From Patescibacteria group bacterium (lineage in GTDB: Bacteria > Patescibacteriota > Minisyncoccia > UBA6257 > UBA9933): a DNA stretch of 64,000 bases. Each line of letters opens with the position of its first letter. Position 1 is the stretch's first letter. The notes under the pieces are model-generated. The model did no database searches and was not told the origin of the DNA. It worked only from the letters and a program-made list of their open reading frames with translations. The translations under genes and the position numbers were made by a program. Of this stretch, positions 295 through 11,056 are shown piece by piece. Where the stretch lies: contig JBBTYQ010000001.1 in assembly GCA_038078555.1 (NCBI GenBank), forward strand, positions 60,966-124,965, in the 5' to 3' direction.

Positions 295-1461
295 TTAAAT
301 TTCCCCGTTTTTTATGTCTTTCCTGATTTTCTCCGCAAAACTGTTAAAAAAATGAAGGTTGTGAAAAGTAAGAAGGCTTAGAGCGGTAATTTCCTTGGCT
401 CTAAATAAATGCGCAATATAATCTCTCCGATAATTATTGCAAACAAAGCAATCGCAGTTTTTATCCAAGGGGTTTTCCCCATTTTTTTTATTGACTGGAA
501 GATTTAAAAATTTTGATTTCCCCAAATCCAGTCTGCCTAAACTCGTAAAAGCAATACCGCGGCGGGCGTAATGAGTCGGCGCTATGCAGTCAAAAGTATC
601 GATTCCTGATTTAATAATTATCGGCATGTCTTCCAAATGTCCGATACCCAATAAATGCCTTGGCTTGGTCTCGGGAAGCTCGTTGATAGTCCAGTTTATT
701 ATTTTTGCCATTTCCTTTTTATCGTCTCCGAATTCTCCGCCTATGCCGAATCCTCCAAAATCCAAAGAACTGATAAATTTTGCGCTCTCTATTCTTAAGT
801 CCTTAAATTTGCCTCCTTGAACAATGCCAAAAAGAGCTTGTTTTTTTCTTTGACTAGCGGATTTTACTTCCAAACATTTTTTTGCCCAAGCATGCGTTTT
901 TATAAGAGAATTTTTTGTATATTTATAATCAGCCAGCGGCGGAGTGCACTCATCAAAAGCAAAAATAATATCCGCTCCCAGGCTTTCCTGAATTTTAATT
1001 GATTCTTTGGGACCCAAAAAAAGTTCTCTTCCGTCTATAGGAGACCGAAAAATAACTCCTTGGTCGTTAATTTTTAAAAAAGAAGGCTGAGCTCCGATGC
1101 CGATTTTTATGTTTTGCTTTTCTTTTAAAATCTTGCCCACTCCGAAATCTCTGCCAAACCCAAGGCTAAAAACTTGAAATCCTCCGGAGTCAGTCATAAG
1201 CGGACGCGGCCAATTCATAAACTTATGAAGCCCTCCGATTTTTTTAATAATGTTTTCTCCGGGTTTTAAATGCAGGTGAAAAGTATTGCAAATGAGCATC
1301 TGGCACTTGGCTTTAATCGCTTCTTCGCTGGTTAAAGTTTTAACCGTTGCCTGCGTAGCCACCGGCACAAATGCCGGCGTTTCAATTTCTCCATGAGCGG
1401 TTTTTAAAATTCCCAAACGCGCTTTACTTTTCTTTGATTTTTTTAAAATTTTAAATTCCAT
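295..1461 (-). CDS. tgt: Queuine tRNA-ribosyltransferase (tRNA-guanine transglycosylase)
   Basis: 388 aa. Motifs NTFHLHLKPG and LMTDSGGFQVFSLG are present, with a C-terminal Zn site CDCFVCNNY...H. Collinear with bacterial Tgt. Confidence 0.9.
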   Translation of the reverse strand: MEFKILKKSKKSKARLGILKTAHGEIETPAFVPVATQATVKTLTSEEAIKAKCQMLICNTFHLHLKPGENIIKKIGGLHKFMNWPRPLMTDSGGFQVFSLGFGRDFGVGKILKEKQNIKIGIGAQPSFLKINDQGVIFRSPIDGRELFLGPKESIKIQESLGADIIFAFDECTPPLADYKYTKNSLIKTHAWAKKCLEVKSASQRKKQALFGIVQGGKFKDLRIESAKFISSLDFGGFGIGGEFGDDKKEMAKIINWTINELPETKPRHLLGIGHLEDMPIIIKSGIDTFDCIAPTHYARRGIAFTSLGRLDLGKSKFLNLPVNKKNGENPLDKNCDCFVCNNYRRDYIAHLFRAKEITALSLLTFHNLHFFNSFAEKIRKDIKNGEI

Positions 1462-1495: not shown

Positions 1496-1531
1496 AAAAA
1501 CAGCCCCGCAATGCAGAGCTGTTTTTTTTAT
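1496..1531. terminator. Bidirectional hairpin terminator between tgt and the large secreted-protein gene
   Basis: aaaacagccccgcaatgcagagctgtttttttt: a GC-containing stem flanked by an A-run and a T-run. Confidence 0.4.
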
Positions 1532-1540
1532 TGTTTATTT

Positions 1541-4500
1541 CTACTCCCCTATCTTCAACCAATTCCTATTCATAATGGAGAAGTCTATGGAATTAACTAT
1601 AGTGTCTTTGTTGATGTCAGAGATTGGGTCTGATAGAAACCATTTGGAAGATAACATGGAGTAATCAAGAGAATTGATGACATTGTCTTGATTTAAGTCT
1701 CCGGCTGGTAAGGTTGGAATAGTGATGGTTGAGTTATTGGTAAGACTGATATTAGTTTGTTTTTTGGATAAGTAATAAGGTGATGATACTTTAACGTCGT
1801 AAGTGCTTGGAGCAATGGTTATTGAAGATAAAGTTATTGAGTTAGCAGTCGGGTTTTGAGTTGCGGTGTAGATTGCGGTTGAAGAACCCGGATTGTAAAT
1901 AGAGATGGTAAAGCTGTTGGAATTAATAGTAGTGTTTCTTTCAAGAGATAGGTTGAAAGAAACATTGGAGGTAGTGGAGACTGGCGGAGCTTGAGTCGTG
2001 GCTGAGGCTGATACTGATTGAGCTGATACATTATTTGCGGCGTCATAAGCGGAAACCGTATAAGAGTATGAAGTGCTTGGAGATAAGCCGGTGTCTGAAT
2101 AACTGGTAGTATTGGAAGTTCCAATTTGCGTACCTCCCCGATATATTCTATAGCCTGTTACTCCGACGTTATCAGTCGAAGCAATCCAAGAGAGATTAAT
2201 TTGAGTTGAAGAGATTGCAGTGGCTGATAGGTTTGTGGGTACTGATGGAGCCGTGGTGTCAGAAGGCGGCGGAGGCGGGATGACTGAACCAGTATAATTA
2301 GAAACACTGGAAAGTTCTTGCAAGGAAAGAATTCTATTATAAATCATTACTTCGTCGATTTTTCCGTTAAATGCTTGAGAACCGCTTGTAAAGGCGCCGA
2401 TTATAAAATTACTGGCTGAATCGTCAGTGGGAGCGCCGCTGCCTATTGATCTTGAAGTATAAGCGGTCTCGCTTACGCTTCCACCTGAAGGCGCGGTATA
2501 AAATCTTATGCCGTCAGCGCTGGAAAATGTTATAGCCGCAAACTGCCAGGCGCCCAGCGTGATGGAATCACTGGCCGCCACGGTTGACGCAATTCCATTT
2601 GCTCTTGTAATAAACGAGGAGAAAGTATTTGGTGTTTGAAGTTTTGTTCTTTTGTATTCGGTTGTTAAAGTGGCCTTATTAAATAATCTTCCGGATGAAC
2701 TGCCTCCCAAAGTATTGGGTAAAATCCACATGGTAATGGTAAAAGGGTCTAAATTATCCATGATTGTCGGACTGCCCAAGTCAACCATGTCGTTTACTCC
2801 GTCAAAGTTTATGGCTCCATTTACTTTTCCGGTTGTCCAGGTCGGTCCATTGGTCAATGTTCCGCTGTTGTTACTTGAAGAATCATTGGCAATTAAGCCG
2901 CTTCCTTCGTCAAAATTCCAATAGCCTATTAAGTTAGAAGGTAGCTGACTTGAACCTCCTGCTAAAGCCACGGAAAAAGATATTAGATAATCATCAGGAT
3001 TAGAATTATTGGATTGGTCTTGGCATCTGATGTAATAGGAGTAAGCTGAACCGCTTGATAAACCTGTTATCAAGACTGAATGATTGGTTGAGTTGGTAGT
3101 GGAGAAAGTATTGGGTATTGAGGCGTATGAAGTATTTGCCGTAGTTGAATATTTGCAAGTGGCAGTTTCATTGGTTGATAAGGATAAGGTAGTTTGAGTG
3201 GTTGAAGAAGGCAGACTGCCTGATGGAGCTCCACTTGATCTTACAGGAGGAGTGATGTCAGCTGTCGGAGCTTGAGTTGTAGCTGAGGCTGAACTTGATT
3301 GAGCTGATACATTACCAGCCGCGTCATAAGCGGCAACTGTATAAGAGTAGGCTGTAGAAGCCGTAAGTCCGGTATTTGAATAAGTTGTATTGGCGGTGGT
3401 AGCAATTTGCGTACCTGCTCGATATATTCTATAGCCTGTTACTCCGACATTATCAGTAGAAGCAGTCCAAGAAAGATTAATTTGAGATTGGGAGATTGCA
3501 GTGGCGGATAAGCCAGTGGAAACTGAAGGAGCGGTAGTATCAGAAGGCGGTGGTGGTGGTGGCGGCAGAGTTCCCGAACAAGTTGATAAAAGACCGATAC
3601 ATTCAGTGCCTGTTTGATAAGCGCCCATTACTTGACTCGAGCGTCCATTGGCCGGATATGAAGTTCTTTTGAAATCAGCGGGTTGATTGAATGTTCCAGA
3701 AGAATTAAGAAAATTAGGATTTGTTGTTATAGAGTTTTCATCGCAATTTATTCCGGTCGTACAACCAGCCCCAGCCAAAAAAGATTTCCAAGCCGAAAGA
3801 GTGGTTCCTTTGGAAGAACCGTTTACCCACCAACTAGTATTGCCGGCTCCGCTGTAATAATCGTTGTAATCTATATAATCAAAATCAGAGATCGTCCAGT
3901 TGGAAGAATCAAAACCCAAAAAATTTCCGCCTGTAGCATGATAATGAATATTATTCCAAAAATGAGACGCCTGAGACGTGCTTTGCCAATAACCGATGTC
4001 TCTGATATTGTTGTAAAACGTATTATTCCTTACGTAAAAGTAATTAGGCGCCCCGTTAGCCACGGAAACAGCCGTGCCGTTGTTTATAAAAACATTCTGA
4101 TAAATATCCGACCAATCAATGCCTACTTGAGTGTCTCCTTCAATTCCTTGAGGCATATTATGAAAAAAATTATAGCGCGCAGTCATTTGATTACCGCGGT
4201 CTTTCCACTTTATGCCTGTATTAAGGCCATCATAGAATTCGTTATTCTCTAAAATCATGCCTTTTGTCCCGTATGTTAAAATAAGAACGTCATTTCCCGA
4301 CCCTTGGGCCATTGCAGGCAAATTGTCGTGAATTTTATTATTTCGAACAAGCAAGTTTTCCATCCAGTCTGTAGGCGTTGTATTGGGAGGATTGCCTGTG
4401 GTGCGGATAACTGCGGGAAATCCCTGATAATCGCCACCGCCAGATAAATCGTTATTCTGTATAATAGAATTATCTCCGCCAGCGCCGACGTGAATATTAC

Positions 4501-4933
4501 CCCAGACATAAAATCCATCAATCGTAACATTGGCCGCGCCGATGGAAATCGTTTTGCAAAATCCGCAAGTGTTATAAACATTGCTTGAATGATTATTTGT
4601 GCTGGAGATCCAGACTACTTCTCCTGGCGCGGCTTTCCAGGTTGTATTTGCCACCGTGGCCTGAATGGCAGCGGCTGTGGTTCCGCTGGTATAAACCGCT
4701 CCGCCGGCTCGGGCATGCACGATTACCGTATCGCCGGGAACAACTCGCGTTCCCGCGTACCAAGGAGTTTTCCAAGGAGTAGACGCTGAACCGTTGTTAG
4801 TATCGCTGCCATTGTCATAATCAACATGATAAGTGGCGGCTTGAACGCTTAAAGTACTAAATAAAATTCCGAAAAATAAAAGCAACGCGAAAAAACCGAA
4901 CCATTTTAATTTTGTTAAAATCATTGCAAGCAC
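1541..4933 (-). CDS. Large secreted multidomain surface protein: signal peptide, right-handed beta-helix region, FN3-like domain, concanavalin/LamG-like lectin domain, second FN3-like domain, Ig-like segment, C-terminal dockerin-like repeat pair
   Basis: 1130 aa with an N-terminal hydrophobic signal peptide. Parallel beta-helix style motifs (NNDLSGGG, NNKIHDN, many N/G-rich turns). Two near-identical modules of about 100 aa begin PPPPSDTTAPSV..INLSW.ASTDNVGVTGYRIYR. (FN3-like). The MVDLGSP..FTITMWI segment is typical of the LamG/ConA-like fold. The C-terminus GDLNQDNVINSLDYSMLSSKWF...SDINKDTIVNSIDFSIMNRNWL resembles a dockerin Ca-binding repeat pair. Confidence 0.75.
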   Translation of the reverse strand: MLAMILTKLKWFGFFALLLFFGILFSTLSVQAATYHVDYDNGSDTNNGSASTPWKTPWYAGTRVVPGDTVIVHARAGGAVYTSGTTAAAIQATVANTTWKAAPGEVVWISSTNNHSSNVYNTCGFCKTISIGAANVTIDGFYVWGNIHVGAGGDNSIIQNNDLSGGGDYQGFPAVIRTTGNPPNTTPTDWMENLLVRNNKIHDNLPAMAQGSGNDVLILTYGTKGMILENNEFYDGLNTGIKWKDRGNQMTARYNFFHNMPQGIEGDTQVGIDWSDIYQNVFINNGTAVSVANGAPNYFYVRNNTFYNNIRDIGYWQSTSQASHFWNNIHYHATGGNFLGFDSSNWTISDFDYIDYNDYYSGAGNTSWWVNGSSKGTTLSAWKSFLAGAGCTTGINCDENSITTNPNFLNSSGTFNQPADFKRTSYPANGRSSQVMGAYQTGTECIGLLSTCSGTLPPPPPPPSDTTAPSVSTGLSATAISQSQINLSWTASTDNVGVTGYRIYRAGTQIATTANTTYSNTGLTASTAYSYTVAAYDAAGNVSAQSSSASATTQAPTADITPPVRSSGAPSGSLPSSTTQTTLSLSTNETATCKYSTTANTSYASIPNTFSTTNSTNHSVLITGLSSGSAYSYYIRCQDQSNNSNPDDYLISFSVALAGGSSQLPSNLIGYWNFDEGSGLIANDSSSNNSGTLTNGPTWTTGKVNGAINFDGVNDMVDLGSPTIMDNLDPFTITMWILPNTLGGSSSGRLFNKATLTTEYKRTKLQTPNTFSSFITRANGIASTVAASDSITLGAWQFAAITFSSADGIRFYTAPSGGSVSETAYTSRSIGSGAPTDDSASNFIIGAFTSGSQAFNGKIDEVMIYNRILSLQELSSVSNYTGSVIPPPPPSDTTAPSVPTNLSATAISSTQINLSWIASTDNVGVTGYRIYRGGTQIGTSNTTSYSDTGLSPSTSYSYTVSAYDAANNVSAQSVSASATTQAPPVSTTSNVSFNLSLERNTTINSNSFTISIYNPGSSTAIYTATQNPTANSITLSSITIAPSTYDVKVSSPYYLSKKQTNISLTNNSTITIPTLPAGDLNQDNVINSLDYSMLSSKWFLSDPISDINKDTIVNSIDFSIMNRNWLKIGE
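1975..2290. repeat. DNA-level copy B of the intragenic FN3-module repeat; partner at about 3245-3570
   Basis: Both copies encode nearly identical protein segments (poly-Pro, SDTTAPSV...TGYRIYR...ATTQAP). The nucleotide sequences are visibly similar. Confidence 0.6.
3245..3570. repeat. DNA-level copy A of the intragenic FN3-module repeat
   Basis: See the partner copy at 1975-2290. Confidence 0.6.
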
Positions 4934-4947
4934 TTTATTTCCTTAAA

Positions 4948-6771
4948 TTACCAGATTATGCTTTTAAATGCTTTTATAAATATTGTAAGTATATTAGGCA
5001 TAATATCAGAAGGCGGCGGCGAAATAAATTTTTCTGAAGGAACCGGACTTAAAAACGGCTCTTTATAAAGTAAATTATCAACTGACTCCTGCGGTATCGG
5101 CATTAAAGGAGCAAATGGCGAAATTATCCTTTGGGGAGACATTATTTCCTGAGTTGGCATTTGTCCTTCCTCCATCATTTTCTTAATCATATCGGGGCTA
5201 GGAATTATATTCTGATAATTATTAGGCGCCTCTCCGTAAAATGGCATTTCTTTAGCCGGCATCATTTGACCTTCGAATCCTTCACGGAACATTTCGCTTG
5301 GAATTTCTCCTTGAGGCATTTCACGATAAGGTGCTTCTTTGAATCCTTCAGGAAGTCCTTTGGGCAAATTAGCTGGTTTAAATTTTTCGCATTCTTCTTT
5401 ATGTGTTTGGTCAGAACAATATCTCGTGCAATCTTCGAATCCCGAACAACCGCCCGGTCCTCTCATTCTTTCCGGACTGCCAATCATTGGCATGCCCTCT
5501 TGCAATCTTCCTTCTTGAAGTCTCGCTGATTCGCCTTGAATCATAGACTTAGGCCTAAACCCTTCAAAACATTTTCTCATAGAATCTCCTATTTGCGGTC
5601 CGGGCATCAAAACGCCGGCTTGAATTTTCTCCAAAATTTCCAGACCTAAGTTTGATTTTAAACATTCTTGAACCTCAGAAGGCGCTCCAGAAAAATCATT
5701 CTTCATATGTTCAATCCCTTCTCTCATGTTTTCAATATCTTTTTCCGGAATCAGTCCGTGCTCTTTAGCAAAACCAAAACAAACTTCTGCGTTATTTGAG
5801 TTATTACAATATGCTTCGCATTCTTCTTTGCCCCGGCAATCGCCCGGTCCTTTACCGCCGGTTTTTCTAAACATTTCAGCTTCTTCCGGTTTCATAAAAC
5901 CGGCTTTAATAGCAAAATTAGCGCATTCTTCCGAATGTGTTCCATCTTCGCAATATGCTTCGCATTCTTCTTTGCCCCGGCAATCGCCCGGCATCTCGCC
6001 CGCTATCATCAATGGCATAATTCTTCTGGCTTCTTCAACTTCTTTCTCCTCAATAAAACCGGCCGCCACGGCAAAATTAAAACATTCTTCCATGTGAATT
6101 GATTCGGAACAATACACATCGCATTCTTTTCTCCCTCGGCAGTTGCCCGGCGGATTAATACCGGACTTAATCGCTTTCATTGCTTTTTTTGCTTCTTTAA
6201 GTTCTTTCTCAGGCATAAAACCCGCTTGTTCGGCAAAAGCCAAACACTCTTCCATGTGCTCGGAGTTATCACAATATAATTCGCAGTCTTTTTTGTTTTT
6301 ACAGCCGCCAGGAAGAGTTGCTCCTTCTTTCACTGTCTTAGCAACTAGTCTAGCTTCCCTTAGCTCTTCTTCGGAAATCAAATCATTTTCCTCGGCAAAA
6401 TTCAAACAAACTTCCATATTATTGGGATTATCACAAAAAGTCTCGCATTCTTTTTTATTTTTGCAGCCAGCCGGACCTTCGCCTATTTTAATAAAAGCTT
6501 TTGCCTTTCTAGCTTCTTCCTTGGAAATTAAATTATTTTTTTCGGCAAAATTAACGCAAGCACCAATATTTTCCGGCTTATCACAATAAGTCCGGCATTG
6601 AGTTTCATTTTTACAATTGCCTAGTTCTTTTACTGGATAGCTGATATCTAATTGTTGTGTTCCGATTTCTGTTTCCTGCGCCTGAGCGATTATAAAATAG
6701 CTGGTAAAAAATCCAGTAGCAATGATAGCTGCGCCTAATATTAAATTTATATTTATTCGCATTATTTTCAT
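4948..6771 (-). CDS. Secreted Cys-rich tandem-repeat protein: eight repeats of about 42 aa of the form C-x6-C-x3-C-x7/8-C-x2-FA, followed by a Met/Pro/Gln-rich low-complexity tail
   Basis: 607 aa. Signal peptide MKIMRININLILGAAIIATGFF. Repeat units include CKNKKECETFCDNPNNMEVCLNFAEENDLISEEELREARL, CRGKEECEAYCEDGTHSEECANFAIKAGFM and similar. The tail is rich in MP..QM motifs. Confidence 0.75.
   Translation of the reverse strand: MKIMRININLILGAAIIATGFFTSYFIIAQAQETEIGTQQLDISYPVKELGNCKNETQCRTYCDKPENIGACVNFAEKNNLISKEEARKAKAFIKIGEGPAGCKNKKECETFCDNPNNMEVCLNFAEENDLISEEELREARLVAKTVKEGATLPGGCKNKKDCELYCDNSEHMEECLAFAEQAGFMPEKELKEAKKAMKAIKSGINPPGNCRGRKECDVYCSESIHMEECFNFAVAAGFIEEKEVEEARRIMPLMIAGEMPGDCRGKEECEAYCEDGTHSEECANFAIKAGFMKPEEAEMFRKTGGKGPGDCRGKEECEAYCNNSNNAEVCFGFAKEHGLIPEKDIENMREGIEHMKNDFSGAPSEVQECLKSNLGLEILEKIQAGVLMPGPQIGDSMRKCFEGFRPKSMIQGESARLQEGRLQEGMPMIGSPERMRGPGGCSGFEDCTRYCSDQTHKEECEKFKPANLPKGLPEGFKEAPYREMPQGEIPSEMFREGFEGQMMPAKEMPFYGEAPNNYQNIIPSPDMIKKMMEEGQMPTQEIMSPQRIISPFAPLMPIPQESVDNLLYKEPFLSPVPSEKFISPPPSDIMPNILTIFIKAFKSIIW
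5770..6620. repeat. Tandem repeats of about 126 bp encoding the Cys-rich modules
   Basis: Recurring nucleotide strings such as gcattcttctttgccccggcaatcgcccgg and ttcggcaaaattaa... at roughly 126-bp spacing. Confidence 0.55.
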
Positions 6772-6798: not shown

Positions 6799-7083
6799 CT
6801 ATTGAAAGGGGTTTTTATAAACCTCTTTAAACGGATTGATTTTGGCCTCAAAAGGGTTGGTTTTTGTCTCATACGGATTAGTTTGCGGAATTTCCGCGGC
6901 TGGATTTTTTATTTCTTCATAGATCTGGCCCCCTAAACTCTCCGTTGATTCTTTAACCGGAACAATTGGCACAATTGACTCGGTTATTTTTTGATAATAT
7001 TTTTTCCAGACATAAAATCCGGCGAAAATAGACAAGACCAAAATTATCCCTGAAATTATTAAAACAATTTTCTTCTTATTCAT
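6799..7083 (-). CDS. Small membrane-anchored protein with TNPxE/NPF repeats
   Basis: 94 aa. N-terminal TM helix. C-terminal repeats TNPYETKTNPFEAKINPFKEVYKNPF. Confidence 0.4.
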   Translation of the reverse strand: MNKKKIVLIISGIILVLSIFAGFYVWKKYYQKITESIVPIVPVKESTESLGGQIYEEIKNPAAEIPQTNPYETKTNPFEAKINPFKEVYKNPFQ

Positions 7084-7176: not shown

Positions 7177-9504
7177 ATGAAAATCCTGCTTATTATCGAC
7201 GCCAACGCCTTAATTCATCGCTGTTTTCACGCCTTGCCCGGCTTAACTACTAAAGATGGCCAGGCTTCCGGCGCCTTGTATGGCTTATCAAGTATTTTGA
7301 TAAAAATTTTTCGGGAAGAGCCGCCGGATTTTATAACGGCTTTTTTTGACCGGCCGGAACCGACTTTTAGAAAAGAAGCTTTTAAGGAATATAAAATTCA
7401 CCGGCCCAAAGCGCCGAACGAATTAATTTCTCAGATCATTGAAGCTCATGAACTGTTCAATCAGTTTGGCGTGAAAACCTTTGAAGCGCCAGGTTTTGAA
7501 GCGGACGACCTAATCGGCACAGCTGTGGAAAAATTCAAAGATACTGCGGATTTAAAAATAATCATTTTAACCGGCGATCTTGATACGCTACAATTAATTG
7601 AAAATGAAAAAGTTGTCGTTAAAACTTTAAAAAAAGGCATCACTGAAACCATAACTTATAATGAAGCGTCGGTTAAAGAGCGCTTTAGCATATCACCAGA
7701 CCAGCTGCCCGATTACAAAGGCCTGGTTGGCGATCAATCAGATAATATCTTGGGAGTCCCGGGAATTGGTCCCAAAACCGCCGGCTCGCTGATTCAAAAA
7801 CACCAAAATTTGGAAGCTATTATTGAATTCAGCAAAAAAAACAAAGAAGAAAAAGCTTATAAGAAAATTTTTGATTTCTGGGAACAAGCTTTGCTTTCTA
7901 AAAAACTGGCTGTCATTCGCCGCGATGCTCCTCTGCTGATAAAAAATATAGCCGAGTTAAAATACCACGGCTTAAATCTTAAAACCATTTCTGATTATTT
8001 TGAAAAACTTGGCTTTAAAAGCCTTGTATCCAGAATAAATAATTTTCACGAGCCTCAAAAAAACAAATCCCAAAAAGAAGAAAAAACAGCGGAATTGATT
8101 ATTGATAAAAATATAGCCAGCCAAGAAAAAAATTTTAACCTTCTAATCGCCTTACAATTAATTGATCCCGGCTTAAAAAAATTTTCCGTTTTTAGCCTGA
8201 CTAAAAAATTCTTAAAAAAAGATTTTGTTGATTCCAAAGAAGCGATTGAAACGCTTTTTGATTTTGCTAAAGCTAAAATCAAAGAATACGGCTTAGAAAA
8301 AGTTTTTTTTGAAATTGAACTGCCTTTAATTCCCATCTTAGAAGAAATGAATGATTGGGGCATCAAAATCGATCTCGAAAAACTCGAAGAAATCAAAGAG
8401 GAATACGCAGAAAAAATAACTGTGCTGACCGAAGAAATTCATCAAGCCAGCGGTCAGCCATTTAATATCAATTCTCCTAAGCAGATGCTTGATATTTTTA
8501 CTGAAAAATTTCAAACAAAGATTTCCTCTACCGGCGCGGATAAGCTTATTTTATTAAAAACATCCGCCTCAAAAAACAATCGAAAACTTGAAGAATTTAT
8601 AGATTTAATTTTAAAATATCGCGAAGTTTTTAAGCTTCAATCAACTTACATTGAACCTCTTTTAAGAAATTCAAGCGGCCGAGTGCATACAACTTTTCTC
8701 CAGCTCGGCGCCGCTACCGGCCGAATGTCTTCGGAAAATCCTAATCTTCAAACTATTCCCGACGAAATAAAGCACGTTTTTATCCCTTCTGAAGAATTTC
8801 GACTTGTTTCTTTTGATTATTCCCAGATTGAATTGAGAATAATGGCTCATTTAAGTGATGATCCAAAAATGAATCAGGCGTTTAATCAGGGAAAAGACAT
8901 TCACACTATTACCGCCAGCCAAGTTTTTCACGTTAGGCCGGAAAACGTCACTCCCCAAATGAGAAAAATAGCTAAAACATTGAATTTCGGCGTAATTTAC
9001 GGCATGGGCTCCCGAGCTTTTTCTCAAACCAGCGGCTTATCTAAAGCCGAATCGCAAAAATTCATCCGGGAATATTTTAATGACTTTCAAAATATAAAAA
9101 TTTGGCAGGAAGAAATTTTAAAACAGGCAAAATCTTTCGGCTATGTTAGAAATATAAATGGCCGAAGACGCTGGCTTTTTGATATTGTCTCGTTTAATCC
9201 CCGGCTTGCTTCAGAAGCCGAACGAGCGGCAATAAATATGCCAGTTCAAAGTTTGGCCGCTGATATTATTAAACTGGCAATGATTAAAACAAAAGATGAG
9301 CTTGAAAAAAAGAGCTGGTGGGGAACTTCCGTCCGTTTGCTTCTTTCTATTCATGACGAATTGCTTTTTGAAATAAAAAATGATCTCTTGAAAAACGATT
9401 TGGAAAGCGAAGTTGTCGCTTTGATAAAAAACTCGATGGAAAATATTTTTCCTTTATCAGTGCCGCTAAAAGTAGAAACAAAAATAGAAAAAAATTGGAG
9501 CTAA
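7177..9504 (+). CDS. polA: DNA polymerase I: 5'-3' exonuclease domain plus polymerase domain, with a short or degenerate 3'-5' exonuclease region
   Basis: 775 aa. The N-terminus matches the 5'-nuclease family. Polymerase motif A DYSQIELRIMAHLS, motif B RKIAKTLNFGVIYGMG, motif C SIHDELLFE. Confidence 0.9.
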   Translation: MKILLIIDANALIHRCFHALPGLTTKDGQASGALYGLSSILIKIFREEPPDFITAFFDRPEPTFRKEAFKEYKIHRPKAPNELISQIIEAHELFNQFGVKTFEAPGFEADDLIGTAVEKFKDTADLKIIILTGDLDTLQLIENEKVVVKTLKKGITETITYNEASVKERFSISPDQLPDYKGLVGDQSDNILGVPGIGPKTAGSLIQKHQNLEAIIEFSKKNKEEKAYKKIFDFWEQALLSKKLAVIRRDAPLLIKNIAELKYHGLNLKTISDYFEKLGFKSLVSRINNFHEPQKNKSQKEEKTAELIIDKNIASQEKNFNLLIALQLIDPGLKKFSVFSLTKKFLKKDFVDSKEAIETLFDFAKAKIKEYGLEKVFFEIELPLIPILEEMNDWGIKIDLEKLEEIKEEYAEKITVLTEEIHQASGQPFNINSPKQMLDIFTEKFQTKISSTGADKLILLKTSASKNNRKLEEFIDLILKYREVFKLQSTYIEPLLRNSSGRVHTTFLQLGAATGRMSSENPNLQTIPDEIKHVFIPSEEFRLVSFDYSQIELRIMAHLSDDPKMNQAFNQGKDIHTITASQVFHVRPENVTPQMRKIAKTLNFGVIYGMGSRAFSQTSGLSKAESQKFIREYFNDFQNIKIWQEEILKQAKSFGYVRNINGRRRWLFDIVSFNPRLASEAERAAINMPVQSLAADIIKLAMIKTKDELEKKSWWGTSVRLLLSIHDELLFEIKNDLLKNDLESEVVALIKNSMENIFPLSVPLKVETKIEKNWS

Positions 9505-9929
9505 TTTATCGGCCTTATTATAATGTGCCTTTCTTTCCCGTCGCCCATGCTTTCGGTCTTAATATCGGGATTTGGAGCCAGCTCTAAATGAACCAAGCGC
9601 CGCTCATAGGCATTCATAGCCGGCAAAGACACTTCTTTTTTTTCTGCCAATGATTTTCTTGCCGAAGCTTTAGCTAATTCCACAATAAGACCCTCTCTCT
9701 TGCGGCGATAGTTATTCACATCAACAAATATTGTGCTGATTTCTTCCTTTTTTATCATTAATTTCACAAGATGGTCGAAGTTTTCGACAAAACCCGGTAA
9801 AAATTTTTCCACCAATTCATCATTGATAAAAACAGAAATTTTGTTTTCACCGGCATCGCAATTTACTGAAAAATCGTCAAATCCCATCAGCCCAATCATT
9901 GTTTTTATTTTCTCTTGAAGTTTATCCAT
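9501..9929 (-). CDS. R3H-domain RNA-binding protein (Jag/KhpB-like)
   Basis: 142 aa. C-terminal R3H-like segment MNAYERRLVHLELA. Lies immediately downstream of yidC, as in the canonical cluster. Confidence 0.7.
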   Translation of the reverse strand: MDKLQEKIKTMIGLMGFDDFSVNCDAGENKISVFINDELVEKFLPGFVENFDHLVKLMIKKEEISTIFVDVNNYRRKREGLIVELAKASARKSLAEKKEVSLPAMNAYERRLVHLELAPNPDIKTESMGDGKERHIIIRPIN

Positions 9930-9946
9930 GGTCTTAATTATGCTTA

Positions 9947-10699
9947 TTATTTCTTCTCGTGCAACTTTTTATCTATTTCCACCAATTTTTCTTCTCCCAC
10001 ATTTAATTGCTTATTGATGACTATTTGTTGGATAACAGAAAACACCGAGCTCGTCAACCAATAAAGTCCGATTGCCGAAGACAGATAAAACAAAAATACC
10101 AGCGTCATGCCCGGACCAATAAAGACCATTTGCCGGCTCATTTGCTCGGCCATAGTCATATCTTTAATGGGTTTCTTATTTTTAGACAAAGATAATTTCC
10201 CTTGAAAATATTGGGCTATCGCCGCCAAAACAACTATTACAGCATTGCGCTTGCTCAAATCAATTAAACCCAAAAAATAATGGTTAATCTCTTGGGGCGT
10301 TGGAACAAAATTATACAAAACAATAAAAGATTCCGTGTTTAATCCTTTTAAAAAAACCTGATAAAGCGCAAAAATTATCGGCAATTGAATTAATATTAGA
10401 GACAAAAATCCGGAAAACGGATTTACTTTGTGTTCCTTATAAAGATCCATCATTGCTTTTGCCTGCTTTGCCTTATCATTTTTATGACTCTCCTGAATTT
10501 CTTTCATTTTAGGCGCCAAGCGCTGAATAATTGACTGGTCTTTGGCGCTCTTATAAAACAAGGGCAGAAGTATCAGCCTTATTAAAATCGTTAAAATAAT
10601 TATAGCTATTCCAAAATCGCTGAAAGAAAAATAATCATATAACAAAATAAGGGCGTTAAATAGCGGCCGATAAAAAATTTCATTGAATATTGCAATCAT
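9947..10699 (-). CDS. yidC: Membrane protein insertase YidC/Oxa1, short form
   Basis: 250 aa polytopic membrane protein located between rnpA and jag. The hydrophobic profile fits YidC core helices. Confidence 0.8.
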   Translation of the reverse strand: MIAIFNEIFYRPLFNALILLYDYFSFSDFGIAIIILTILIRLILLPLFYKSAKDQSIIQRLAPKMKEIQESHKNDKAKQAKAMMDLYKEHKVNPFSGFLSLILIQLPIIFALYQVFLKGLNTESFIVLYNFVPTPQEINHYFLGLIDLSKRNAVIVVLAAIAQYFQGKLSLSKNKKPIKDMTMAEQMSRQMVFIGPGMTLVFLFYLSSAIGLYWLTSSVFSVIQQIVINKQLNVGEEKLVEIDKKLHEKK

Positions 10700-10717
10700 A
10701 AAGTTAATAGTTATCTC

Positions 10718-11056
10718 TTAGTAATTAATGGTTAATATTTTTTTTAATTCTTTCTCAATATCTTCTTTTTTTAATTTATCGGATTTTGTCAAAACTGTTA
10801 TTAAAATATCTCTTCCTGATAATTCATGATATTTATTAAGTCGAATAAAATTAAAAATGATTCTTTTTATTCTGTTCCGCCTGACTGCCGCCTTACTGAC
10901 TTGTTTGCTGATAATTAAGCCGTACCGGGAAAATGATAAATTATTGGCCGCCGTCTTTATAATAAAAAATTCGCTTTTGCGAATATTTATTTTTTTTCTC
11001 TCTTTAAGCCAGTCCTGAATTGGAATCCGGTATTTTTTTGCAAGCATATTTTTCAC
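10718..11056 (-). CDS. rnpA: RNase P protein component
   Basis: 112 aa. The basic segment SFSRYGLIISKQVSKAAVRRNRIKR matches the RnpA RNR motif region. Confidence 0.8.
   Translation of the reverse strand: MKNMLAKKYRIPIQDWLKERKKINIRKSEFFIIKTAANNLSFSRYGLIISKQVSKAAVRRNRIKRIIFNFIRLNKYHELSGRDILITVLTKSDKLKKEDIEKELKKILTINY

Follow-up and report, generated by a model that had tools for sequence, protein, structure and literature searches.

The Helicobacter proteins HcpA, HcpB and HcpC, which are composed of Sel1-like repeats, are secreted, disulfide-cross-linked helical repeat proteins in which each unit of approximately 36 to 44 amino acids (aa) has two helices and two cysteines. The twin CX3C and CX9C proteins (small Tim and CHCH proteins) and the plant alpha-hairpinins are helical hairpins that are stapled by disulfides in an oxidising, non-cytosolic compartment. 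A protein that resembles both groups is encoded at positions 4948..6771, on the minus strand, of the stretch of DNA analysed here (the window), which comprises 64,000 nucleotides of contig JBBTYQ010000001.1 (positions 60,966 to 124,965) from the Patescibacteria assembly GCA_038078555.1. The open reading frame (ORF) encodes an exported protein of 607 aa that is identical to the NCBI metagenome-assembled genome protein AAB596_00305, for which the source is given as Patescibacteria group bacterium and the annotation as hypothetical. The plus-strand ORFs within the same interval are antisense artefacts. Within the class of extracytoplasmic, cysteine-stapled helical repeats, the protein is most aptly regarded as a previously undescribed domain family, and the explanation that we tentatively favour is that it is Sec-exported and forms a disulfide-stapled helical rod or scaffold of fixed length in the cell envelope, working with a small partner protein.

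Cysteine accounts for 30 residues (4.9 %) of the protein, against 0.47 % for the remaining long ORFs in the window, and 28 of the 30 belong to seven copies of a module with the identical spacing C-x5-C-x3-C-x8-C. The module motif is PGG-C-x5-C-x3-C-x8-C-x2-F-A-x3-G, followed by a hydrophobic pair and an acidic helix. Six copies stand in tandem with a period of 48 to 54 aa, their first cysteines at aa 53, 103, 157, 211, 264 and 312, and a seventh copy, with its first cysteine at aa 442, is isolated and truncated. The two cysteines outside the modules, C370 and C401, are located in a helical insert between modules 6 and 7. The parts of the gene are listed below; helices and confidence values (pLDDT, predicted local distance difference test) are from AlphaFold2 (AF2).

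4948..6771, minus strand: whole ORF, 607 aa and a stop codon
6682..6771, minus strand: Sec-type signal peptide, aa 1-30, with a positively charged start, a hydrophobic core of 19 residues and A-Q-A at 28-30
6475..6651, minus strand: N-terminal cap D-I-x-[YF]-P-[VI]-x-E-L-G-N (aa 41-52) and module 1 (aa 50-99), cysteines 53, 59, 63 and 72
6313..6474, minus strand: module 2, aa 100-153, cysteines 103, 109, 113 and 122; the module that was modelled singly
6151..6312, minus strand: module 3, aa 154-207, cysteines 157, 163, 167 and 176
5992..6150, minus strand: module 4, aa 208-260, cysteines 211, 217, 221 and 230
5848..5991, minus strand: module 5, aa 261-308, cysteines 264, 270, 274 and 283, with the invariant linker T-G-G-K-G-P-G at its end
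5692..5847, minus strand: module 6, aa 309-360, cysteines 312, 318, 322 and 331
5542..5691, minus strand: helical insert, aa 361-410, with C370 and C401, a pair that is invariant in the family alignment
5458..5541, minus strand: disordered linker rich in Gly, Gln, Glu, Arg and Met, aa 411-438 (pLDDT <50 at aa 414-435)
5377..5457, minus strand: module 7, truncated, aa 439-465, cysteines 442, 448, 452 and 461; the first two helices only, without F-A-x3-G
5002..5376, minus strand: Pro-, Glu- and Met-rich disordered tail, aa 466-590, delimited by pLDDT and composition
4951..5001, minus strand: C-terminal element, P-P-P-S-D followed by the amphipathic helix MPNILTIFIKAFKSIIW (AF2 helix 594-606)

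An earlier note on this stretch had described a secreted protein made of eight repeats of 42 aa with the spacing C-x6-C-x3-C-x(7-8)-C. Secretion is borne out by the hydrophobic N-terminal segment and the A-Q-A behind it. The repeats number seven, six in tandem and the truncated one at aa 442, and their period is the longer one given above. The four-cysteine module itself stands, with a first spacing of x5 instead of x6 and a third spacing of x8 in 7/7 copies. The x2-F-A-x3-G stretch and the acidic helix that the note placed after the fourth cysteine do recur in the tandem copies.

The signal peptide, which falls within an AF2 helix spanning residues 8-35, would be cut after AQA and before Q31. 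No twin-arginine motif is present at the N-terminus of the query (MKIMRININ...). Across 239 relatives, [AV]-x-A was found behind the hydrophobic core in 194 and a twin-Arg-like motif in four, which argues for Sec rather than twin-arginine translocation (Tat) export. This bears on the idea that the protein is an extracellular electron conduit with an iron-sulfur or other redox cofactor in each four-cysteine module. Export of a folded, cofactor-loaded protein is not expected from a Sec-type signal, and a twin-arginine motif is absent from 235 of the 239 relatives. A regular array of Cys4 units on a rigid rod is all that recommends a conduit, no maturation or redox partner gene was linked to the family in 85 loci, and the idea is hardly credible. 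To our knowledge, the cysteine spacing of the module matches no iron-sulfur motif.

The full-length AF2 model, based on an alignment of 53 sequences, is entirely helical in its confident part, with block pLDDT means of approximately 88-97 over aa 41-380 and 83-87 up to aa 400. Confidence is below 50 at aa 35-39 (the junction behind the signal peptide), 414-435, 468-524 and 536-591. Each complete module consists of a short helix 1 bearing the second and third cysteines (C2 and C3), a helix 2 bearing C4 and F-A, and a longer acidic helix 3; C1 is positioned in the P-G-G loop directly ahead of helix 1. Prediction of one repeat by itself, a check proposed in the earlier note, was carried out on module 2 and gave a three-helix unit (helices 7-15, 20-29 and 35-52, as in the full-length model) with a pLDDT of 90.7. 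The helical insert is modelled as helices 365-375, 377-384 and 392-404, with block means of 92, 92, 83 and 87 over aa 361-400. Beta sheet is absent from both the full-length and the single-module model.

The nearest working analogue of this arrangement is the Sel1/Hcp group, which likewise consists of secreted tandem alpha-helical repeats, each with conserved cysteine cross-links. The module described here differs in being 48-54 aa long and in having three helices and four cysteines. No Pfam match to Sel1 (PF08238) was obtained at E values up to 10, and no Sel1-like repeat or Hcp structure was among the Foldseek matches, so that profile, repeat layout and fold all place the protein outside that family. 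The likeness to twin-CX3C proteins lies in the C-x3-C on helix 1 and the partner cysteine on helix 2. In contrast to those proteins, CX3C is present on one helix only, the fourth cysteine is in the loop before helix 1, there is a third helix, and the unit is repeated six or seven times per chain in a bacterial protein; CHCH and zf-Tim10_DDP gave no Pfam match.

No known domain was matched by the module, whether by sequence or by predicted fold, in agreement with the earlier note, which did not recognise the repeat. The Pfam-A hmmscan of the query, read up to E = 10, returned only the sub-threshold family AtDEF-like (PF25052), which was rejected: the query scored 19.2 bits against a gathering cut-off of 25, and the best stretch spans the signal peptide into module 1. 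In the relative P0003 the same family totals 25.6 bits, yet no single stretch passes. Because the query score is below the cut-off and the AF2 model lacks beta sheet, the protein does not belong to the plant defensin-like class. Searches of NCBIfam with the query gave no family. Sequence searches of the PDB with the protein, a full-length family profile and a 76-module profile gave no match under E = 0.05; the best E-values, 0.052 for the full-length family profile and 0.61 for the 76-module profile, were to irrelevant helices. Foldseek comparison with the PDB and BFVD gave no match below E = 0.4, and the best module matches had E >=1.2. The full model retrieved generic TPR- and PPR-like helical proteins from the PDB (E >=0.44, query-normalised template modelling score <=0.14), the single module retrieved generic helical hairpins from the PDB (E >=5), and it had no significant match in BFVD. 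An EGF, TNFR or anaphylatoxin-like fold, which the note had named as a match that would undo its reading, was found neither in Pfam nor by PDB sequence or Foldseek search, and the module is all-alpha with four cysteines. Precomputed Pfam labels on relatives (AtDEF-like, SPP1_GP23-1 and ADAM10_Cys-rich) are partial matches of 20-30 residues that are inconsistent between members, and were set aside as chance. A literature search on the motif and on cysteine-rich repeat proteins of the Candidate Phyla Radiation (CPR) turned up no account of the family.

Relatives are numerous. More than 1,300 were found in a database clustered at 90 %, nearly all unnamed or hypothetical; one (P0002) is labelled 'YppG family protein' by NCBI, a label that the NCBIfam search did not reproduce. 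A profile built from the seven modules of the window matched at least 1,772 clusters at 50 % identity, 909 of them with E <=1e-30, and the 150 best matches listed have 6-13 copies per protein. A relative is encoded by 423 genomes of the GTDB species set. The search for the module in other Patescibacteria that the earlier note suggested thus uncovered a large family, which by its source labels is essentially restricted to Parcubacteria-type lineages: every informative organism name is of this type (Wolfe-, Yanofsky-, Jorgensen-, Wildermuth-, Nealson-, Terry-, Staskawicz-, Niyogi-, Specht- and Harrisonbacteria, and Paceibacterota). Some GTDB records (loci L010, L015, L029, L043 and others) are labelled 'uncultured Candidatus Saccharibacteria', Gammaproteobacteria, Methylomirabilis or Aenigmatarchaeota, and these are probably generic or wrong bin labels, not true occurrences outside the group. 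The query has the features that define the family, which are the signal peptide, the cap, at least five modules of the form C-x5-C-x3-C-x8-C-x2-F-[AG], and a gene encoding NP[FYL] motifs upstream. The cap is conserved approximately 15 residues past the putative cleavage site, before module 1.

When the query is compared with orthologues from other lineages, each module is closest to its positional counterpart, which implies that the array predates the radiation of these lineages and that each position has been kept individually. On comparison of the sequences, the array appears to be ancient and fixed and not variable in copy number. The earlier note had proposed DNA tandem repeats of roughly 126 bp that could drive copy-number variation. 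Tandem Repeats Finder (TRF) detected no array within the gene; copies in register lie at distances of 144-162 bp and share 60-75 % identity at the DNA level, and neither this low identity nor the position-by-position likeness across lineages fits such variation. The number of modules does range from 5 to 13 across the family, a change on an evolutionary time scale that would suit a phase-variable or contingency surface protein whose repeat number shifts by recombination between DNA repeats. With no tandem repeat found by TRF, diverged copies, and modules that are orthologous by position across candidate phyla, that reading is nearly refuted and its chance of being right is very slight.

Longer relatives (P0151, P0195, P0199, P0141 and P0026; L086 2980..5271 and L087 722..3676) add other parts to the module array, namely an extra N-terminal domain, a C-terminal Laminin_G_3 domain, a Kazal-like segment or a conserved cysteine-rich ending (...PSCSY[VL]G.P.[ST]Q.Y..CK.C[FY]P). 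The Laminin_G_3 domain stands behind the array in P0151, P0195 and P0199.

In each module the four cysteines are most likely paired in two disulfides and not arranged as a metal site, judging from the pattern of conservation and the predicted location. All four are present in 687/687 in-register modules, and the total number of cysteines is even in 107/120 relatives. These even and invariant counts, the extracytoplasmic location and the lone C370/C401 pair favour disulfides, as do the lack of CxxC or His ligands and the enrichment of MdbA-like and VKOR families in the CPR. Neither CxxC nor CxxCH occurs in the protein, and among the families enriched in the CPR is an MdbA-like thiol-disulfide oxidoreductase with VKOR (Meheust et al., bioRxiv 10.1101/335083). 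Some relatives carry other disulfide-type domains such as Kazal. The insert pair would form one disulfide, a fit that follows from the inability of a lone pair to make a metal site alone. In the model the CX3C pair on helix 1 faces helix 2, and the cysteines could plausibly pair either as C3-C4 with C1-C2 or as C2-C4 with C1-C3. Degenerate modules lacking one cysteine pair, which would reveal the connectivity, were sought in the family and none was found, the apparent cases being spacing variants.

Metal binding is the alternative use of these residues, in which each module would hold a Cys4 tetrathiolate site (Zn, Cu, Cd or Fe), the Met-containing tail would add Cu(I) sites, and the protein would serve as an extracytoplasmic metal buffer or scavenger. 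The four invariant cysteines could converge, since C2 and C3 are separated by a single turn of helix 1, helix 2 bears C4, and C1 is in the loop ahead of helix 1; the array is also markedly acidic (net charge -19 summed over the six modules). However, the protein has no CxxC knuckle, the lone C370/C401 pair suits a disulfide, Pfam gave no hit to CopC, CusF, cupredoxin, metallothionein or families like them, and no metal-resistance or transport gene is a conserved neighbour in the 85 loci.

The tail bears on the same question. The last 146 residues are 16 % P, 11 % E and 8.2 % M against a Met background of 1.7 % (binomial p ~1e-5), and it is this Met content that speaks for copper. The earlier note had described a low-complexity tail of about 150 aa rich in Met, Pro, Gln and Glu, with many MxxM and MP motifs, typical of periplasmic Cu(I)-binding proteins. 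The length, the disorder and the richness in P, E and M hold, and Gln is only 4.8 %. Six of the 11 MP dipeptides of the protein lie in the tail; MxxM is not present in it at all, nor is His, and Met pairs are limited to two MM dipeptides and three wider pairs. Across the family the Pro content of tails has a median of 13 %, and Met ranges from 0 % to approximately 21 % with a median of 4 % (5th-95th percentile 0-11.8 %) and is at or below 2 % in 30 % of tails. A Cu(I) role of the tail is unsupported because Met content varies across the family and the query tail has neither His nor MxxM. The protein does resemble Cu(I) Met-rich proteins (the CopA, PcoA and CueO inserts, PcoC/CopC, CusF and the Ctr1 Mets motifs) in being exported and in having a Met-enriched disordered segment, 8.2 % over 146 aa. 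It differs from them in having no MxxM or MxM clusters or His in that segment and no cupredoxin, CopC or CusF domain, in that the enrichment is not conserved in the family, and in the lack of linkage to cop, cus or pco genes, so the copper-binding tail of the note was not upheld and metal binding as a whole appears unlikely. A structural role is more likely than metal binding.

The tail is followed by the C-terminal element, which in the form P-P-P-[STQ]-S plus an amphipathic or hydrophobic helix of approximately 14-18 residues, often with R/K at the end, was found in 146/258 relatives (~57 %). It is also present on relatives of different architecture (for example P0140, P0199 and P0246), and a hidden Markov model of the element matched no other ORF in the window and the 85 loci (~760 kb). 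The element resembles a sorting or anchoring signal without LPxTG. The overall order of signal peptide, repeats, Pro-rich disordered stretch and short C-terminus, with the R/K end in many relatives, is also that of Gram-positive wall-anchored proteins. These differ in their LPxTG motif, which is absent from the last 50 aa of 258/258 relatives, and the query, in which LP.[TSA]G is absent, has a terminal helix of approximately 13-17 residues with two Lys and no basic tail. The protein was therefore assigned neither to the LPxTG-sortase class (no LPxTG) nor to the Tat/Fe-S class (no twin-arginine). A surface-layer role was considered conceivable in the earlier note; classical S-layer proteins usually have few or no cysteines.

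The family is accompanied by a second gene. Immediately upstream on the same strand, a small partner was identified in 79/85 loci by clustering and in 76/80 by motif, with a median gap of 7 nt. The features around the target gene in the window are as follows.

6799..7083, minus strand: partner gene directly upstream, 94 aa, a single membrane helix at the N-terminus and then a tail with four NP[FY] motifs and the end ...YKNPFQ
1541..4933, minus strand: downstream gene, encoding a secreted protein of 1130 aa in which Pfam identifies two near-duplicate fn3 domains, Laminin_G_3 and a C-terminal dockerin
1496..1526, minus strand: intrinsic-terminator-like hairpin with a 14-bp stem and a T run, the strongest of its kind on the strand and the first that follows the three genes

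The NP[FY] motifs of the partner in the window are 7-8 residues apart, and a 21-bp tandem repeat found by TRF at 6829..6884 encodes part of the tail. In the family the tail has no hydrophobic core and a near-invariant end, ...NP[LYF]-E-x-x-P-[DE]-x-NP-x-x-K-[TA]-NPF-K-[DN]-x-[YK]-x-NPF. At least 837 proteins belong to the partner family, all of approximately 80-122 aa, all from Patescibacteria and none with an annotated function. No Pfam family was found in a search of the partner, and the partner family has no NCBIfam or PDB counterpart; JGI FliL labels on a few relatives are apparently spurious. The partner also occurs beside divergent relatives: it lies immediately upstream of P0199, which bears Laminin-G, and at a distance of 1.3 kb upstream in the case of the Sungbacteria variant P0026. 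Its presence thus follows the module array irrespective of the C-terminus. No other conserved neighbours were present in the 85 loci.

On the basis of this pairing, the module could be a new extracellular peptide-recognition repeat in which each module or groove docks one NP[FYL] of the partner, and the partner would then reel the disulfide-hardened rod to the membrane, for instance as a ruler or strut for wall or S-layer spacing in these ultra-small cells. The near-universal pairing, the invariant motifs and the conserved length of the array make this docking compatible with the evidence, and it is put forward as an improbable possibility.

The gene for the 1130-aa protein starts 14 bp past the target stop. 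No terminator-like site was found between the partner, the target and the start of the 1130-aa gene, and since the strongest such site follows the last of the three, they probably form one transcription unit. This would hold for the present genome only, the 1130-aa neighbour not being found adjoining relatives at other loci. The outer flanks consist of the housekeeping genes polA (7177..9504, plus strand), which is divergent from the partner, jag/R3H, yidC and rnpA (9501..11056, minus strand), and tgt (295..1461, minus strand).

A lectin-like neighbour raises the question of attachment. The array could be a stalk for contact with a host or prey, a spacer that projects the tail, a Laminin-G domain or the co-transcribed lectin-like protein as an adhesin or displayed ligand. 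P0151, P0195 and P0199 end in Laminin_G_3 after the array, the fn3/Laminin_G_3/dockerin gene lies 14 bp away here with no terminator-like site between, and a role in attachment has been proposed for cysteine-rich extracellular proteins of other CPR bacteria (PMC4736985). On the other hand, the lectin-like gene is unlinked to the family at every other locus, most members end in a disordered tail alone, and the array would have no N-terminal anchor if the signal peptide is cleaved. The conservation of modules by position across lineages would also be unusual, as host-contact adhesins tend to diversify. A stalk of this kind is considered a doubtful explanation.

The favoured explanation, a rod or scaffold in the envelope, would work as follows. 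In each module the disulfides would staple the N-terminal loop and helix 1 onto helix 2, so that the array would become an oxidation-stabilised rod of fixed length between membrane and wall. The small partner, the C-terminal helix of the rod itself, or both, may hold the rod at the cell surface, and in some relatives the rod would bear added binding domains such as Laminin-G. The unit that recurs across Parcubacteria is a two-gene cassette of a large array protein and a single-helix membrane protein of ~90 aa with a tail, presumably extracytoplasmic, that ends in three or four NP[FYL] motifs. The Laminin_G_3-bearing relatives, and here the likely co-transcribed fn3/Laminin_G_3/dockerin protein, fit and support a surface context.

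Several points weigh against this explanation. The scaffold role is argued from the architecture of a protein with no homologue of known function, and both the cleavage of the signal peptide and the topology of the partner are read from sequence features. The case for disulfides over metal coordination is indirect, and in the many Parcubacteria that are anaerobic, disulfides outside the cytoplasm are less certain to form. A motif scan of the 64-kb window found no thioredoxin-like CxxC protein, a weak test that is uninformative on the whole genome. The tail of the partner shows no charge complementarity to the acidic array, and the C-terminal helix of the query is too short and polar for a transmembrane anchor.

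The family is one among many uncharacterised exported families specific to the CPR, and the module, a candidate for a new domain-family entry, explains no phenotype yet. The Parcubacteria account for a large share of bacterial diversity and have hardly been cultured, and their envelopes and contacts with other cells are poorly understood. The pair described here consists of widespread, lineage-restricted exported proteins, and with a module of 50 residues and a partner of 90 residues it offers a compact target for the study of how the envelope of these ultra-small bacteria may be built or spaced.

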